This document shows, one piece after another, positions 53,358-59,650 of a stretch of DNA of 64,000 nucleotides (positions within the stretch are counted from its first letter, which is position 1; each line of letters starts with the position of its first letter). The position numbers and the translations under genes were made by a program. The DNA lies in the NCBI GenBank assembly GCA_002170775.2, contig NHIP02000003.1, forward strand, positions 155,029 to 219,028, read 5' to 3'. The notes beneath the pieces are model-generated. The model saw only the letters and a list, made by a program, of their open reading frames with translations. It was not told the DNA's origin and searched no databases. Source of the stretch: Euryarchaeota archaeon TMED192 (GTDB lineage Archaea; Thermoplasmatota; Poseidoniia; Poseidoniales; Thalassarchaeaceae).

Positions 53358-54344
53358 ATGGTATCTATAGAAATTATTTCCGAAGAAGATGATCAGATTA
53401 GCGTCCTCTTCAAGGACGCCGATCGCGCACTCTTGAATGCAGTAAGACGTAATCTGATGGCACATATCCCAAAGATGGCTGTTGACAGCGTGAGATTCCA
53501 GATGGGGACCTATGATCAATGCGTGAAGTGTGGACACCTCAATCCGGCAGGTGTCGCTAGGCGCTCAGCAGGAGGAACAGGGTGTTCCAAGTGTGATGCG
53601 CCTTTCGAGAAGGAGGGTGAAGACTACCTTGTGTGGGAGACTAACAGCGCGATACCCGACGAAATGATAGCTCAGAGAATGGCGATGATCCCCATCCCAA
53701 CAGATACAGGAGCATACTCTTTTGAGGAAGAATGTCCGGATTGTAAAGACCTGATAGAGGAAGATAGGGGCTGCCCGTCATGCAACATGATCTACACACT
53801 TCGTGCCTTTGGATCTGACGAAGGGAGCACTGTCACCGCTGGCGATCTTGTTTTCCTTGGAGATGATTCTGGGAGCGTTCCTGAGAAATATCGAGACATA
53901 CCGATAACAAGACTCTATGGGGGTCAGATGATGGAATTCTGGGCCACTGCGAAGATGGGGTATGGCAAGGATCATGCAAAGTGGTCAACTGTTTCAGGAG
54001 TATCCTTCTTCCCACGGCAGATTGGAGTTATCAATAACGGCAAGAAGGCCAAACTTCTCTTTGACATGGGACTTAGAGTGTCCAAGAAAGACTTCACAGA
54101 TGGGAGGCTCGAGGACATCTCCAAGGTATTGGATCTGAAGAAGGATCTTCACAACGTTGGGGCCGGGACGGGTATGAAAGATTCGTTTGCTGACGCCATA
54201 GGGCTTGAAGATGTAGAGGGTGAATTCATCATGACCTTCGAAACAGATGCGTCTATGAGTCCTGCTGATGCTCTAAATGCATCCTTTGCTAAACTCTCTG
54301 AGCGTTTCAGTGCGATCAAGGACGATATTGAGCACGTTCTCTGA
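53358..54344 (+). CDS. rpoD: DNA-directed RNA polymerase subunit D (Rpo3) with extra zinc-ribbon insert
   Basis: Its position after S13-S4-S11 supports the call. Motifs: LLNAVRRNLMAHIPKMAVDSV, IPDEMIAQRMAMIPI, and a C-terminal dimerisation helix. There are four CxxC pairs. Confidence 0.85.
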   Translation: MVSIEIISEEDDQISVLFKDADRALLNAVRRNLMAHIPKMAVDSVRFQMGTYDQCVKCGHLNPAGVARRSAGGTGCSKCDAPFEKEGEDYLVWETNSAIPDEMIAQRMAMIPIPTDTGAYSFEEECPDCKDLIEEDRGCPSCNMIYTLRAFGSDEGSTVTAGDLVFLGDDSGSVPEKYRDIPITRLYGGQMMEFWATAKMGYGKDHAKWSTVSGVSFFPRQIGVINNGKKAKLLFDMGLRVSKKDFTDGRLEDISKVLDLKKDLHNVGAGTGMKDSFADAIGLEDVEGEFIMTFETDASMSPADALNASFAKLSERFSAIKDDIEHVL

Positions 54345-54390
54345 TGGATTACCTAGTGCTTTCAAGGACCGAAGCCCAGTGGGGGTCGAA

Positions 54391-55368
54391 ATGAAGCTCC
54401 CGGTGATTGGTCATGCCTCCTGTGGCGGGCATGTGACATTATTGTTCACAGTGGAAGACGATGCTTCAGAAGCGCATCTACAAGGCAGCAGGGGTGTTGG
54501 GATATGTCTCGATACCGGTTGTGACGTTGCAGTAAGGGGAATGGCCGGCGATTGGGGCCTGGATATTCGTTTCGAAGGTCATCAGGGGAATTCTCACTTA
54601 GTTCGTGAAATTGTCGAAGTCGTTGCAGAGGACTTGCCTCAGATCAAACAAAAACACTGGACTCTTATTATTCGGAATCGCCTTCCTCCTTCACAGGGAT
54701 TCGGGATGTCAGCTGCTCTGGCCATCGCAACTTCAAGAGCTATGCAACGTGCAATGGGGGAGGAATACGAGATCTCTCTTAGACGATCAATGTTACATGC
54801 ACACGTATGTGAAAGAAGGACTTCTTCAGGACTGGGGGATGTATTAGGAATTTCAGCGGGAGGTGTTGAGATTCGGACTTCGCCTGGATCTCCATTTTCA
54901 GGTAATGGTCTGCAAAGTGGACCAGGAGTCTCGAGGGGTTGGTCTAACACAATGGAAGTGATTCTCATATGGCCCGACAGGGAAGGGCACCATACAAGCG
55001 AGTACATCAATGATCCACTTTGGAAAAAGAGTATCACTCAATCGGGGGATAGGTTACTCTCCACGCTTGAGGGAAAATGGGGAGAATCCTCCTGGAGTGA
55101 TTTGATATCATGTGCTCGTTCTTTCGTGGAAGAAAGTGGCCTTTTGGATGACAGTAGCAGAATGGACCTACTCAACATGGTTGAAGATTCAATCACAAAG
55201 AGTGGCGAGGACGCAGTGGCCTCACTATGTCTTTTGGGCAGAAGCATAATCGTGACGAAGAAGGATTTGAGAAGTGAAGTTGACTTTGAGGTCTTGATTG
55301 ACGGGATTCGCAAGACGGGGCTTGAATGCATGAAGGTGGGAGTAAGCGATGCGCGAGCACATCTATGA
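54391..55368 (+). CDS. GHMP-family kinase, pantoate-kinase-like
   Basis: GHMP motif II-like PPSQGFGMSAALAIATSRA. The N-terminus GHASCGGHVTLLFTV recalls the F.PGHITG.F start of archaeal pantoate kinases. Start taken at Met 54391, because the ORF opening at 54277 overlaps rpoD. Confidence 0.45.
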   Translation: MKLPVIGHASCGGHVTLLFTVEDDASEAHLQGSRGVGICLDTGCDVAVRGMAGDWGLDIRFEGHQGNSHLVREIVEVVAEDLPQIKQKHWTLIIRNRLPPSQGFGMSAALAIATSRAMQRAMGEEYEISLRRSMLHAHVCERRTSSGLGDVLGISAGGVEIRTSPGSPFSGNGLQSGPGVSRGWSNTMEVILIWPDREGHHTSEYINDPLWKKSITQSGDRLLSTLEGKWGESSWSDLISCARSFVEESGLLDDSSRMDLLNMVEDSITKSGEDAVASLCLLGRSIIVTKKDLRSEVDFEVLIDGIRKTGLECMKVGVSDARAHL

Positions 55369-56397
55369 TCTATTATTCTCGTGGAAAGTATCCAAATCAG
55401 AAAGATCCAATGGCGAAGAGTCGAGGAGGATGGCTCCTTTCAAGTCAAGCGCTTCGCAAAAGCCATGCCTGTACACGATGGCACCTTGGCCATATTCTGA
55501 AACATAGCGGTCAACCTGCTTCTGAGTCTTCTTTCTAGGGAACTTCAATGCAGCGCCGAAGAAATGCTTGGCATCTATCCATGCACATGGAATCCCATTA
55601 ATTCTAACGTCGTCGAGAAGGAGGAGGTCAGGCGTAATGATTGCTCTTCCCTCGCTTCTCTTCTGCTCGACCTCAAGGTCTTCTTGCTTTCTGAAACGGA
55701 CGCCGATGGAGGAGAAGTATGAGCATAGAATATGCTCGAAAACCTCAGCAGCTGTCTGCGTCTCGGATTGATTCACTGAACTGACACGATCCGCTTCCTC
55801 TGCGAGTTGGAATTGTTCGAAATCACGTTCTTTGAGTCTAGATTTTGGAGATTTTAGAGATTCTTTGATCTTGTTCTTGGACCATCCACGTCCTGTGAGA
55901 ATGGCCCGGAATGTATTGACGGGCGGCGCGTCAAAGCGCTTGGATAGAGAAAGTACAGAGTCCCCACCTTCATACCTTCTTCGAAGTTCGTTGGAACGTC
56001 GCATCAAACGCCCGTGCGAATAGACGCTTTTCTCCTGATTCAATGCGGCCCTGAGTGATAGCGCCTGCTCCAGAGTGATATCTAAATCGGAAATCTGTTT
56101 TGAGATTTCATCGACCCTCTCCTGGGGGAGGAATCCAAATTCCCCTGGGCGGCTGATGATATCGCCTGTCTTTTTCTGTACCGACTTGGCCACTGAATTG
56201 ACGGGCCAATCAATCTCTATCTTCTGAGGGGGTGGGTCAATGCTCTCTGGGATGCCCATCGGAGAGGGAGAGGTTTCGAATCTCCCGAGTGCTCTCTGGA
56301 TCGCTTCAGAGTTCTGTTGGCCTTTGGCCTTGGCCTTGCTTGGTCCTCTCTGAGAGCGGCTTCGCCTCCGTGGCCCGTCGTCTTTGTTATCGCTCAA
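55363..56397 (-). CDS. PD-(D/E)xK-fold nuclease-like protein with TPD motif (CDIN1/C15orf41-like)
   Basis: The C-terminal core has E221 (AAEVFEHIL), ITPD257LLLL and WID275AK277HFFG, i.e. E...PD...(D/E)xK. An upstream HTH-like segment reads YEGGDSVLSLSKRFDAPPVNTFRAIL. The N-terminus is basic. Confidence 0.55.
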   Translation of the reverse strand: MSDNKDDGPRRRSRSQRGPSKAKAKGQQNSEAIQRALGRFETSPSPMGIPESIDPPPQKIEIDWPVNSVAKSVQKKTGDIISRPGEFGFLPQERVDEISKQISDLDITLEQALSLRAALNQEKSVYSHGRLMRRSNELRRRYEGGDSVLSLSKRFDAPPVNTFRAILTGRGWSKNKIKESLKSPKSRLKERDFEQFQLAEEADRVSSVNQSETQTAAEVFEHILCSYFSSIGVRFRKQEDLEVEQKRSEGRAIITPDLLLLDDVRINGIPCAWIDAKHFFGAALKFPRKKTQKQVDRYVSEYGQGAIVYRHGFCEALDLKGAILLDSSPLDLSDLDTFHENNRS

Positions 56398-56445
56398 CGA
56401 CCATCCGTGTGGCTACCCCGACATGAACCCAGCGTACGATGCAGA

Positions 56446-56784
56446 TCATTGAGGGGTGCGGAATCTTCTTTTTGCATAGGCATCATATACGATATCTCGG
56501 ATGAATCTAGGCACGAGAAGACCGATTGAGGCCATAGGCCAGGGAAACCTTAGTTGTCTGACGATCTGAAGAGCTGCGGTTGATTTCGCTGTCCACTTGC
56601 CCTCATCATCGATGAAAAAGACCGAGTCGACATTGCTCAATTCAGGTGGGCGCTGCTCGATGATGGCCTTTCCATCAGGGGTTTCCTGGCCTATGATTAA
56701 AAGAGCGCCCTTGGAATGTCTCTCGATGAATCGGGCCCATGCAGAGCAGGATTCACAGAAATCATCGTAGAGCACAATTGCCAT
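56446..56784 (-). CDS. DCC-family thiol-disulfide oxidoreductase (DUF393)
   Basis: From Met 56784: MAIVLYDDFCESCSAWARFI (D-x-x-C-x-x-C near the N-terminus) and ~112 aa. The longer ORF would overlap the leuS 3' end. Confidence 0.7.
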   Translation of the reverse strand: MAIVLYDDFCESCSAWARFIERHSKGALLIIGQETPDGKAIIEQRPPELSNVDSVFFIDDEGKWTAKSTAALQIVRQLRFPWPMASIGLLVPRFIRDIVYDAYAKRRFRTPQ

Positions 56785-56794
56785 TTCATTAACC

Positions 56795-59650
56795 TCACAA
56801 AAAGGCAATCCCGGGTTCAAGGGGTTGTGCGAACTTCGCCTTGCCGCCGGCATCCTCCCCGGTGCCTGCCTCATAGACCTCAATATTCCCTATCCCAAGC
56901 GTCGAGGCTATGAATTGCGATCGAGATTCGAGAATTGCTGCCTCGTTGGCTCCATTCCTGATTAGTGCCGTCTCTTCAGCAGTCCAGGTCTGTACTTTTC
57001 CCCGTCTCTTCTTTGAGCCCGTGGTAATTGTTGCCCATGTCTGAATGACTGCTCCCTTGTCACTTGATTTGAGAAATGACTGGTGCTTCTTGATGAATGA
57101 CATTCCTTCTCTGATGAAATCAAAATTTGAATCTTTGAGTTCGACGGCCTCCTTCGCGAGATTTGTAGACCACTCGGCCGCAGTCTGTATGACTATCCGA
57201 CTAATCGGTTTCTGTGAATGCTTCTGGGCTAGAGGGAGCAGGTTCCTTGCTGTATCGATGACGGATCGAAGATATGCCTCTTCAGCTATTATCACTGAAT
57301 CGTTATCAGTTGGTTTGTCTTGGCTGAGCACGGTATTTGCGAGCATTGACTTGCCCCCTATTTTGGTCCAGAGTTCTTCGGCGATATGCGGCGTGGCAGG
57401 CGCGATCATGTGCGCCCACTTTGACAGATATTCAATCGCTGAATCCCTATTCTGGCCACCTCTCCTGACATACCACTGCCAGTCGGACAGCATCTCGAAA
57501 TGGCTAATCATTACGCCTTCTCTCAAACTTACTCCCTGCATACAATCGATCCAACGAACTAGATTCGCTCTCCCTCTTGCCTTGAGCCATTCATCAATCT
57601 GATTCTGATTGATATCCATTGTAGATGCTGATGAAAAGGCGTCGATGATTGAGAGGATGTGCCTGTGGTTGGACTCTATGGCTGCGTCTGACCACTCCAT
57701 TCCTGCCTCGGGGTTGGCGCCGAATAAGATGAACAGGCGAACTGTATCGGCGCCATACCTCTCGACCATGTCTCCCGGGCTGACGGTGTTTCCAAGCGAC
57801 TTGCTCATCTTGGCAGATCTCGAGCCTAACACGGCGCCGCAAGTTGGGCATTCTTTTCCTTCGAGGTCGACGTGAAACTCGGTGTTGCAATCGGAGCAAT
57901 ATGGCGCGGGAGCATTCAGCATACCCTGACACACGAGACGTCCGAAAGGCTCGCCGACTAGGTTCATGCCCATGTCCCTGGTGGCCTTGGTGAAGAATCG
58001 CGCATAGAGCAGGTGCATCACCGCATGTTCGATACCGCCGATGTAGAGGTCCACTCCTCCCTCCATCCAATAATCGACAGCTTCTCTGGAGAATGGTGAT
58101 TCGCTGTTATTGGCATCGCAGAATCGCATGAAATACCACGATGAGTCGTAGAATGTATCCATCGTATCTGTTTCACGCGATGCTCCACCACCGCAGGAAG
58201 GGCATACGACGTTGGTGAATCCATCATGGCTTGAGAGCGGATTGCCGCTCTGATCTTCTGTGAAAGTCACATCTAATGGTAATGCCACAGGGAGGTCTTT
58301 GCGTGGCACCTTTACGATGCCGCATGAGTCACAGTGTATCATGGGGATCGGGGTGCCCCAGAAACGCTGTCTGCTCAACAGCCAGTCTCTGAGACGGTAC
58401 TGGGTCGTGCCTAATCCCGAGTTCTCGGACTCGAGAGACGCGATGACTGCTGATTTAGCATCATCACCGGATAGGCCGTCGAATTCCGGGCGGGTGGAGT
58501 TGACCATCGGACCGTAGTCGATGAATGCCTCCTCGAGAGGCTGGTCTGGATCGTCGTCAGGTTTCTGTACGAGGACTCTTCTGATTTCAAGATCATATTT
58601 CTTGGCGAAATCGAAGTCCCGTTGATCGTGACCCGGGACTGCCATCACGGCTCCTGTCCCGTACCCGGCGACTACGAAATTGCCCGCATATACCGGTATT
58701 CGATCGCCACTCATAGGATTGATGGCGTGCTGGCCGAGGAATACTCCCTTCTTCTCCTTCAAGAGGTTGATTCGCTCGAATTCGGAGAGTCTTGCACACT
58801 CATCTCTTAGATCTCTCCAAGCCGCCTCCCACTCAGTGCCTCTGCAAAGATCCTCGCAAAGAGGGTGCTCGGGGGAAAGCGTAAGGAACGTGACTCCGAA
58901 TATCGTATCTGGACGTGTTGTGAAACAGGATATTTCGGCATCGGATTTCTCAATCTTGAATTTGATCTCCGCTCCTCTGGAACGACCTATCCAATTCCTC
59001 TGCATCGCCTTTACATTGTCCGGGAACTCAATATCGTCTAATGAGTCGAGTAATTCATCAGAGTACTCGGTCATCTTGAGGAACCATTGAGCCATGTCGC
59101 GTTGCACCACATCGAGCCCACATCTCCAACAACGGTTGTTCTTCACCTGCTCGTTGGCTAGCACGGTATCACAGTCTACGCACCAGTTCACAGGTGCTGA
59201 ACGACGCTCAACGAGCCCGCGGTCATACAGGTCCAGGAACATCTCCTGGTTCCACCTGTAGTAGTCGACGTCTGAGGTCGCTAAACGGCGTCTCCAGTCG
59301 TATGAGTATCCCATTCGACGCTGGTCTGCCTGTATGCTTGAGATGTTGCGATCAGTGACTGTCGCTGGATGCCCCTGCTCCTTCTTAGCGGCATTTTCGG
59401 CTGGCATGCCGAACGAGTCGTAACCCATCGGATAGAGCACGTTCTTACCCATGAGACGATGGAATCTGGCCATTGCATCGCCGATTGAGTAGTTACGAAC
59501 ATGGCCCATGTGCATGTGACCCGAGGGGTACGGGAACATCTCGAGGCAGTAGAACTTGGGCTTGGACCGATCTACATCGGCATGGAAGGCATTTGTGCGC
59601 TCCCACTCGTTCTGCCACCGATGCTCGATCTCGGCGTAGTCGTACCTCAT
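56795..59650 (-). CDS. leuS: Leucyl-tRNA synthetase (bacterial-pattern sequence)
   Basis: MFPYPSGHMHMGHVRNYSIGD (HIGH region), GYDSFGMPAENAA, CP1 zinc hairpin CVDCDTVLANEQVKNNRCWRCG, CPSCGGGASRETDTMDTF and KMSKSLGN. Confidence 0.95.
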   Translation of the reverse strand: MRYDYAEIEHRWQNEWERTNAFHADVDRSKPKFYCLEMFPYPSGHMHMGHVRNYSIGDAMARFHRLMGKNVLYPMGYDSFGMPAENAAKKEQGHPATVTDRNISSIQADQRRMGYSYDWRRRLATSDVDYYRWNQEMFLDLYDRGLVERRSAPVNWCVDCDTVLANEQVKNNRCWRCGLDVVQRDMAQWFLKMTEYSDELLDSLDDIEFPDNVKAMQRNWIGRSRGAEIKFKIEKSDAEISCFTTRPDTIFGVTFLTLSPEHPLCEDLCRGTEWEAAWRDLRDECARLSEFERINLLKEKKGVFLGQHAINPMSGDRIPVYAGNFVVAGYGTGAVMAVPGHDQRDFDFAKKYDLEIRRVLVQKPDDDPDQPLEEAFIDYGPMVNSTRPEFDGLSGDDAKSAVIASLESENSGLGTTQYRLRDWLLSRQRFWGTPIPMIHCDSCGIVKVPRKDLPVALPLDVTFTEDQSGNPLSSHDGFTNVVCPSCGGGASRETDTMDTFYDSSWYFMRFCDANNSESPFSREAVDYWMEGGVDLYIGGIEHAVMHLLYARFFTKATRDMGMNLVGEPFGRLVCQGMLNAPAPYCSDCNTEFHVDLEGKECPTCGAVLGSRSAKMSKSLGNTVSPGDMVERYGADTVRLFILFGANPEAGMEWSDAAIESNHRHILSIIDAFSSASTMDINQNQIDEWLKARGRANLVRWIDCMQGVSLREGVMISHFEMLSDWQWYVRRGGQNRDSAIEYLSKWAHMIAPATPHIAEELWTKIGGKSMLANTVLSQDKPTDNDSVIIAEEAYLRSVIDTARNLLPLAQKHSQKPISRIVIQTAAEWSTNLAKEAVELKDSNFDFIREGMSFIKKHQSFLKSSDKGAVIQTWATITTGSKKRRGKVQTWTAEETALIRNGANEAAILESRSQFIASTLGIGNIEVYEAGTGEDAGGKAKFAQPLEPGIAFL

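Follow-up and report, generated by a model that had tools for sequence, protein, structure and literature searches.

Does the gene at positions 55363 to 56397 (minus strand) of a stretch of DNA from Euryarchaeota archaeon TMED192 (contig NHIP02000003.1) encode a relative of CDIN1, the Codanin-1-interacting nuclease known in man as C15orf41 and mutated in the hereditary anaemia CDA-I, and if so, what might such a protein act upon in an archaeon? The window, by which we mean the whole 64,000-nucleotide stretch that was analysed, had been the subject of a sequence-only reading, which proposed that the 344-residue product is a TPD-motif PD-(D/E)xK protein of the CDIN1 type, with a helix-turn-helix (HTH) segment and a basic, probably disordered N-terminus. 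We find the family call to be right, with homology spanning nearly the full length of CDIN1 and extending beyond the nuclease domain. The protein falls, however, in a different deep branch of the family from the metazoan enzyme, and the two-branch structure of the family, in which archaea and eukaryotes are mixed on both sides, is what this analysis adds.

Family membership and domain plan

The Pfam model of the TPD family (PF14811) matches residues 199-321 of the window protein with a score of 68.3 bits (E 8.1e-19), where the curated gathering score is 27; TPD was the sole Pfam family found at E<=1, and the Hjc profile (PF01870) had no match. Nothing significant came from NCBIfam, PHROGs or PADLOC (the best PADLOC match had an E-value of 0.018 at 12 bits, and there were no PHROG hits). 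By BLASTP only the C-terminal 98 residues align with mammalian CDIN1 (30% identity, 1e-8). Profile comparison by hhalign with vertebrate CDIN1, for which named database entries served as references, gave a probability of 96.5% with shallow profiles and 99.9% (E 9.5e-34) with deep ones, in which 115 subfamily sequences stood on one side and vertebrate CDIN1, joined by 30 typical archaeal proteins, on the other; the deep alignment covers 214 columns and pairs residues 105-327 with CDIN1 33-268. E221, D257, D275 and K277 are thereby placed on E166, D196, E214 and K216, which Brolih et al. 2026 (PMC13463051) name as the catalytic residues of CDIN1.

The four residues are unchanged in all seven order-wide orthologues examined (7/7), and among the 115 subfamily members, whose identity falls as low as 23%, E221 and D257 are invariant while D275, K277 and Q294 are each at least 90% conserved. 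The tetrad of E, D, D or E, and K is also kept in the alignment with CDIN1 orthologues, and no profile search led to a different PD-(D/E)xK family. Judged by these comparisons, the window protein is a PD-(D/E)xK protein of the TPD/CDIN1 family, with a match far beyond chance. Neither the existence of archaeal family members nor the annotation of this gene is new: Swickley et al. 2020 (PMC7092493) reported C15orf41 orthologues from Euryarchaeota and also from protists, diatoms and oomycetes among them; NCBI already gives several relatives at ~71-76% identity the name 'TPD domain-containing protein'; and for database proteins that are nearly the same (96-99% identity) a PF14811 label had been precomputed.

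An AlphaFold2 model built on the 115-sequence alignment (pLDDT 94.9, pTM 0.89) begins with a disordered basic tail (residues 1-20), a helix (21-37) and a short hairpin (strand 59-62). Eight helices (71-202) come next, and after them a long helix (211-230), which bears E221, and five strands, with D257 opening the second strand and D275 and K277 lying on the third. The model of CDIN1 described in PMC13463051 likewise has eight helices in its N-domain, one long helix as the connection, and an alpha/beta/alpha C-domain with five strands. The window protein is thus predicted to have the two-domain plan of CDIN1, a helical N-domain joined by a long linker helix to a five-stranded nuclease core. The parts of the gene are as follows.

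55363..56397, minus strand: the whole TPD/CDIN1-family gene, 344 residues, with its stop codon at 55363-55365 and a TTG start at 56395-56397
56308..56397, minus strand: residues 1-30, polybasic tail (RRRSRSQRGPSKAKAK), of which residues 1-20 are of low confidence and probably disordered
56086..56307, minus strand: residues 31-104, a conserved helix with an RF..P.MG.P..DPPP block (31-58), then a beta-hairpin and two helices (59-104)
55783..56085, minus strand: residues 105-205, all-alpha N-domain, homologous to CDIN1 ~33-150 by hhalign and the model
55882..55980, minus strand: residues 140-172, the 'HTH-like' segment, with helices at 135-143, 148-155 and 159-169, aligning with CDIN1 ~68-110
55405..55782, minus strand: residues 206-331, PD-(D/E)xK nuclease domain, a long helix with E221 and a five-strand core
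55735-55737, minus strand: E221 codon (GAG), corresponding to CDIN1 E166
55627-55635, minus strand: T255-P256-D257, the TPD motif, D257 corresponding to CDIN1 D196
55567-55575, minus strand: D275-A276-K277, corresponding to CDIN1 E214-S215-K216, with the D275 codon at 55573-55575 and the K277 codon at 55567-55569

A codon-by-codon check bore out the earlier numbering of E221, T255-P256-D257, D275 and K277, and the motifs that had been read, TAAEVFEHIL, IITPDLLLLDDVRINGIPCAWIDAKHFFGA and RRYEGGDSVLSLSKRFDAPPVNTFRAILTGRGW (the last being residues 140-172), match the translation; the open reading frame is real. Codon 1 (TTG) and codon 47 (ATG) are the only in-frame start codons available, and the former is the likelier because residues 31-46 are kept across the order-wide orthologues (alignment of seven). 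The orthologues also share an N-terminus of the form LSxxxD/E, and one locus (L001) has a TTG-TTG start; comparison of these sequences suggests that a non-ATG (TTG) start has been kept in the genus and family.

With respect to the N-terminus, the sequence-only reading has stood up well: the tail is basic, with 10 lysines and arginines to 4 aspartates and glutamates in the first 38 residues, and residues 1-20 are of low confidence in the AlphaFold2 model. A net charge of at least +5 is found in the tails of 90 of 119 orthologues, and the polybasic tail is limited to the Poseidoniales lineage. Residues 31-104 were not aligned to vertebrate CDIN1 by hhalign; from about residue 60 onward the N-terminal region is common to subfamily-B relatives (defined below). 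The lineage-specific extension consists of the polybasic tail and a small module of ~45 residues.

The 'HTH-like' segment fared less well. It is homologous to part of the helical N-domain of CDIN1, as far as that goes, but no HTH profile matched it at E<=1 and no HTH protein was found among its PDB neighbours: the N-domain modelled alone (pLDDT 92.3) and compared with the PDB gave nothing significant (best E 2.3), and HTH proteins were absent among the hits. An AraC/XylS-like HTH was predicted for C15orf41 in 2013 by Babbs et al., as summarised in PMC7261414, and the label remains a prediction inherited from the CDIN1 literature. Local helix-turn-helix geometry could still be present in the modelled pair of helices at 148-155 and 159-169.

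Foldseek matched the whole length of the model to a giant-virus protein, A0A8F8SNR0 (TM 0.75/0.85, E 5e-26, root-mean-square deviation 1.9 A over 285 columns), and also to the Powai lake megavirus 'TPD domain-containing protein' and the mimivirus 'CDAN1-interacting nuclease 1'. Against the PDB neither the whole model nor the N-domain alone found a significant match, the top hits of the whole model being the restriction enzymes BsaWI and AgeI, the repair nuclease Bax1, and SfsA, for which reason both the specific nuclease subfamily and the HTH class are left unassigned. Sequence searches of the PDB, with the protein and with a seven-sequence profile, were empty, in agreement with the statement in PMC13463051 that CDIN1 was resolved in neither cryo-EM study.

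Distribution and the two subfamilies

The family model finds exactly one gene in each of the 41 relatives (41/41) of the same genus, family and order, and the TPD gene is a single-copy core gene of the Poseidoniales (Marine Group II). It is to this order, and within it to the family Thalassarchaeaceae, that the names on homologous proteins assign the organism. A survey of its distribution in archaea, another of the checks named beforehand, found the family in 170 of 301 Thermoplasmatota genomes sampled. The non-Poseidoniales members of the phylum are 255-280 residues long and, if one low outlier (G096) is set aside, reach 123-167 bits with the Pfam model, whereas Poseidoniales members score 65-82 bits. 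When GTDB species genomes were scanned with an alignment of the type designated A below, 294 loci were recovered, of which the best 80 all belong to Methanomassiliicoccales or other Thermoplasmata; Methanosarcina acetivorans, the control genome, was also positive for the family model. One Methanomassiliicoccales-type protein matches mammalian CDIN1 at 6e-34 by BLASTP, which reproduces the published human-archaeal figure of 1e-34 (PMC7092493), itself better than the human-choanoflagellate value of 1e-12 given in the same paper.

Trees were built with FastTree (181 sequences) and with IQ-TREE under LG+C20+F+G4 (74 sequences), and both cut the TPD family in two at 100% support. Branch A contains vertebrate CDIN1 together with the typical Thermoplasmata/Thermoplasmatota proteins (Methanomassiliicoccales-type) and those of Marine Group III (MGIII). 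Branch B contains the Poseidoniales along with the top hits from the deep homologue search, among them oomycete proteins named CDIN1 in UniRef, MMETSP transcripts, and proteins on Tara contigs whose neighbours are eukaryotic (glucan synthase, PI-PLC/C2, WW, B9-C2 and RING proteins). Many other branch-B sequences are rich in asparagine, lysine and isoleucine; we regard them as giant-virus-like or as coming from AT-rich protists, and the former reading fits the giant-virus structural matches. On this phylogeny the TPD family falls into two deep branches with both archaea and eukaryotes in each, and the window protein belongs to subfamily B and is not a strict orthologue of metazoan CDIN1 (100/100 for the split). 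In the IQ-TREE analysis vertebrate CDIN1 falls among the A-type archaeal proteins, MGIII lying outside on weak support (84/35), and not with the protist B-type proteins. This placement echoes the observation of Swickley et al. 2020 that the human protein is nearer to its archaeal than to its choanoflagellate homologues, and the origin of metazoan CDIN1 may itself have involved inter-domain transfer.

Within branch B the maximum likelihood tree puts a clade of 18 eukaryote representatives inside the Poseidoniaceae (100/99), although the approximately unbiased (AU) test does not reject monophyly of the Poseidoniales (p 0.138). As judged from the trees, the kinship of archaeon and protist within this branch is solid, but transfer may have gone in either direction. 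A scenario that would join these observations is that subfamily B is a nuclease that moved between the domains of life in the ocean: the ancestor of the Poseidoniales would have swapped its ancestral A-type gene, still kept in the sister order MGIII and in Methanomassiliicoccales, for the B-type common to protists and giant viruses; the B-type would then have been fixed as a core, Codanin-independent RNA nuclease, its polybasic tail doing the work of the basic coiled-coil feeder of Codanin-1; and later a Poseidoniaceae-like copy would have passed to marine picoeukaryotes, there to be fused to Stc1 zinc fingers, and a Thalassarchaeaceae-like copy to a virus-like element. Taken as a whole, this chain of events is possible but doubtful, and we offer it tentatively.

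Three further observations concern unusual copies. A protein of 562 residues (P0123) encoded on a 42-kb Logan contig (SRR24302422_29880; L062:2140-3828) has a cysteine-rich, RING-like N-terminal half and a TPD body that falls inside the Thalassarchaeaceae clade (100/99). The contig is packed with small open reading frames, nearly all without Pfam hits, together with a RING-finger protein and a DUF7796 protein, and looks like a virus-like element that has captured a Marine Group II-type TPD gene. One Poseidoniaceae genome (G207; L063:3844-6657, contig C4) carries a second, divergent TPD paralogue of 937 residues, with 66.6 bits at residues 801-928; read by eye, it has a basic N-terminus followed by long coiled-coil-like and acidic low-complexity regions, and its neighbours are a dUTPase-like gene on one side and the small and large subunits of ribonucleotide reductase on the other. 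A second TPD copy is likewise present in genome G251.

Activity, gene context and the alternatives

In describing CDIN1 as an anaemia protein of ill-defined activity, the sequence-only reading was partly out of date, since a 2026 study (PMC13463051) reports that CDIN1-Codanin-1 is an RNA nuclease. According to that study human CDIN1 cleaves RNA and not DNA, taking 2 nt off the 3' end of double-stranded RNA or, in RNA:DNA hybrids, off that of the RNA strand, and the basic coiled-coil domain of Codanin-1 feeds it the substrate. Support for an RNA substrate that is independent of the human biochemistry comes from domain fusions in subfamily-B relatives: one of them (P0258) joins TPD to an RNA cap guanine-N2 methyltransferase domain (PF09445; 60 bits, cutoff 22), three of the four oomycete proteins (P0155/P0161/P0169) join it to weak PPR-like repeats, and proteins of marine picoeukaryotes (P0133/P0141/P0398) join it to Stc1 zinc-finger repeats. 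The genome from which the window comes (a 1.44-Mb assembly, 87% complete) has no match to Codanin-1_C (PF15296) at E<=1.

On the strength of the human biochemistry and these RNA-related fusions we propose, with moderate confidence, that the window protein may be a stand-alone, Codanin-independent, divalent-metal-dependent RNA nuclease. By analogy with human CDIN1, it would probably attack structured RNA at its 3' ends, or else RNA:DNA hybrids, cutting their RNA strand. No partner would be needed: the protein would grip the nucleic acid with its basic tail and helical N-domain and cut it with the C-domain. Several considerations weigh against this proposal. Most PD-(D/E)xK enzymes cut DNA, and the weak structural hits in the PDB are restriction enzymes and Bax1. 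RNA activity is known for human CDIN1 only, a member of the other subfamily that is weak without Codanin-1, and from one paper; the PPR matches of the oomycete relatives lie below the Pfam cutoffs; and the gene neighbourhoods offer no functional partner.

The main rival is a structure-specific DNA nuclease of repair or recombination, in line with the original prediction of C15orf41 as 'Holliday-junction-resolvase-like'. The PD-(D/E)xK fold suits it, as do the best, though non-significant, PDB neighbours (BsaWI, AgeI, Bax1 and SfsA) and the early literature, which predicted a DNA endonuclease according to PMC7261414. It is nevertheless unlikely: human CDIN1 failed to cleave DNA, whether linear, flap, fork or Holliday junction, in two independent studies (PMC7261414, PMC13463051), a canonical Hjc (PF01870, 45 bits), whose profile does not match the window protein, is encoded elsewhere in the genome (contig C16), and the fusions in relatives point to RNA. 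Much less probable still is a non-catalytic role, in which the nuclease-like fold would serve to bind nucleic acid or as a scaffold. CDIN1 alone is indeed very weak, needing more than 250 nM enzyme per 10 nM substrate (PMC13463051), earlier work saw no activity at all (PMC7261414), and a long basic tail with a helical domain could be enough for binding; yet the invariance of E221 and D257 and the near-constancy of D275, K277 and Q294 over 115 sequences are as selection on catalysis would give.

To return to the proposed RNA nuclease, gene context was compared in 11 loci of Poseidoniales, 8 of other Thermoplasmatota families and 1 of MGIII (one further locus, L049, is without a called TPD gene). 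In all 11 Poseidoniales loci the TPD gene stands beside a cluster of S13, S4, S11, RpoD and GHMP kinase genes, which the GHMP-kinase gene ends; the two genes are convergent in 10 of the 11, the exception being L038, where the GHMP-kinase homologue lies on the TPD strand. leuS is upstream of the TPD gene in 9 of 11, and a DCC1-like gene intervenes between them in only 2-3 of 11. Synteny is kept within lineages only, with no partner gene common to different lineages over the 11 + 8 + 1 loci: the TPD neighbours in the Methanomassiliicoccales-type family are entirely unlike those in Poseidoniales. The earlier statement that context gives no clue to function therefore holds, as does its account of a convergent GHMP kinase and a neighbour of the DCC family, except that the DCC1-like gene is upstream of the TPD gene in the direction of transcription and does not follow it. 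The same setting speaks against the weakest alternative, a mobile or defence-type, restriction-like nuclease, which the giant-virus relatives, the relative on a virus-like contig and the signs of inter-domain transfer in the family might suggest, but which is extremely improbable for a gene that is single-copy in 41 of 41 relatives at a fixed site by ribosomal-protein and RNA-polymerase genes, that has no significant PADLOC or PHROG hit, that has no adjacent methyltransferase or other defence partner in the compared loci, and that shows neither presence/absence polymorphism among strains nor flanking by defence genes in a majority of the compared genomes.

The features surrounding the gene in the window are these.

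54277-55368, plus strand: GHMP-kinase open reading frame, whose 5' end overlaps the rpoD end by 68 nt and whose 3' end overlaps the TPD stop by 6 nt
56398..56445, minus strand: spacer from the DCC1-like stop to the TTG start, 48 nt, GC-rich
56446-56883, minus strand: DCC1-like gene, longest open reading frame, overlapping the leuS end by 89 nt
56795-59650, minus strand: leuS

The true start of the GHMP kinase is probably an internal methionine (MKLPVIGHASCGG). An internal ATG of the DCC1-like gene (MAIVLYDD..., at ~56784) would begin right after the leuS stop, and with that start the TPD gene, the DCC1-like gene and leuS would lie close together, all reading in one direction. Since the 48-nt spacer contains no A/T-rich, TATA-like element, co-transcription of the TPD gene with the upstream DCC1-like gene is plausible, to judge from the layout of the sequence.

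Around the A-type gene, by comparison, seven loci of Methanomassiliicoccales-type genomes (L048, L050-L055) show a conserved 450-residue gene upstream and a convergent gene of ~295 residues downstream, which by eye resemble a CoA-disulfide/NADH oxidoreductase and an MptA-type GTP cyclohydrolase respectively. In four loci an RNase HII-like gene lies two genes from the A-type TPD gene; a co-dependency of CDIN1 and RNase H2 in DepMap is mentioned in PMC13463051, and the proximity of the two genes is probably a coincidence.

Comparison with known systems

CDIN1 is the product of a human disease gene whose biochemistry has only lately begun to be worked out, and simple, partner-free homologues would be useful as models. 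The window protein shares with vertebrate CDIN1, the CDA-I protein, its two-domain architecture and catalytic tetrad, but belongs to the other deep subfamily, has ~100 extra N-terminal residues including the polybasic tail, and, unlike CDIN1 in its complex with Codanin-1, comes from a genome without a Codanin-1 match. It had been suggested as a compact full-length counterpart of CDIN1 and hence a tractable model; it is indeed a full-length relative, but not the archaeal protein closest to the human enzyme (1e-8, against the 6e-34 of the Methanomassiliicoccales-type). The typical euryarchaeal TPD proteins (Methanomassiliicoccales, other Thermoplasmata, MGIII and Methanosarcina acetivorans) are of the same family and likewise archaeal, but differ in their length of ~255-280 residues, in having no basic tail, and in a 'WIESKASFGD...FGPGLVVYW' motif like that of human CDIN1. 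By sequence similarity, these typical proteins represent the human enzyme better than the window protein does. Its closest archaeal homologues belong to Methanomassiliicoccales and Methanosarcina, lineages that include cultivated organisms, whereas the marine archaeon of the window is uncultured.

What the locus adds is modest, namely the two deep branches, a Poseidoniales core gene with a basic tail of its own, and fusions in relatives that point to RNA; of this, only the two-subfamily structure and the kinship of archaeon, protist and virus are worth following up. The giant-virus TPD/CDIN1 proteins (of Powai lake megavirus and Acanthamoeba polyphaga mimivirus, and A0A8F8SNR0) match the window protein in fold over the whole length, but are viral, lack the basic tail and are only 14-30% identical. 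The stramenopile and picoeukaryote CDIN1-like proteins (Saprolegnia, Phytophthora, MMETSP and Tara contigs) are nuclear eukaryotic genes with long N-terminal extensions, either of weak PPR-like repeats or of Stc1 zinc fingers, and yet they are its closest non-archaeal relatives, all in subfamily B: the Saprolegnia 'CDAN1-interacting nuclease 1' aligns with it by BLASTP over 280 collinear residues (32% identity, 5e-49), and one eukaryote clade of the subfamily is either sister to the Poseidoniales or nested within them.

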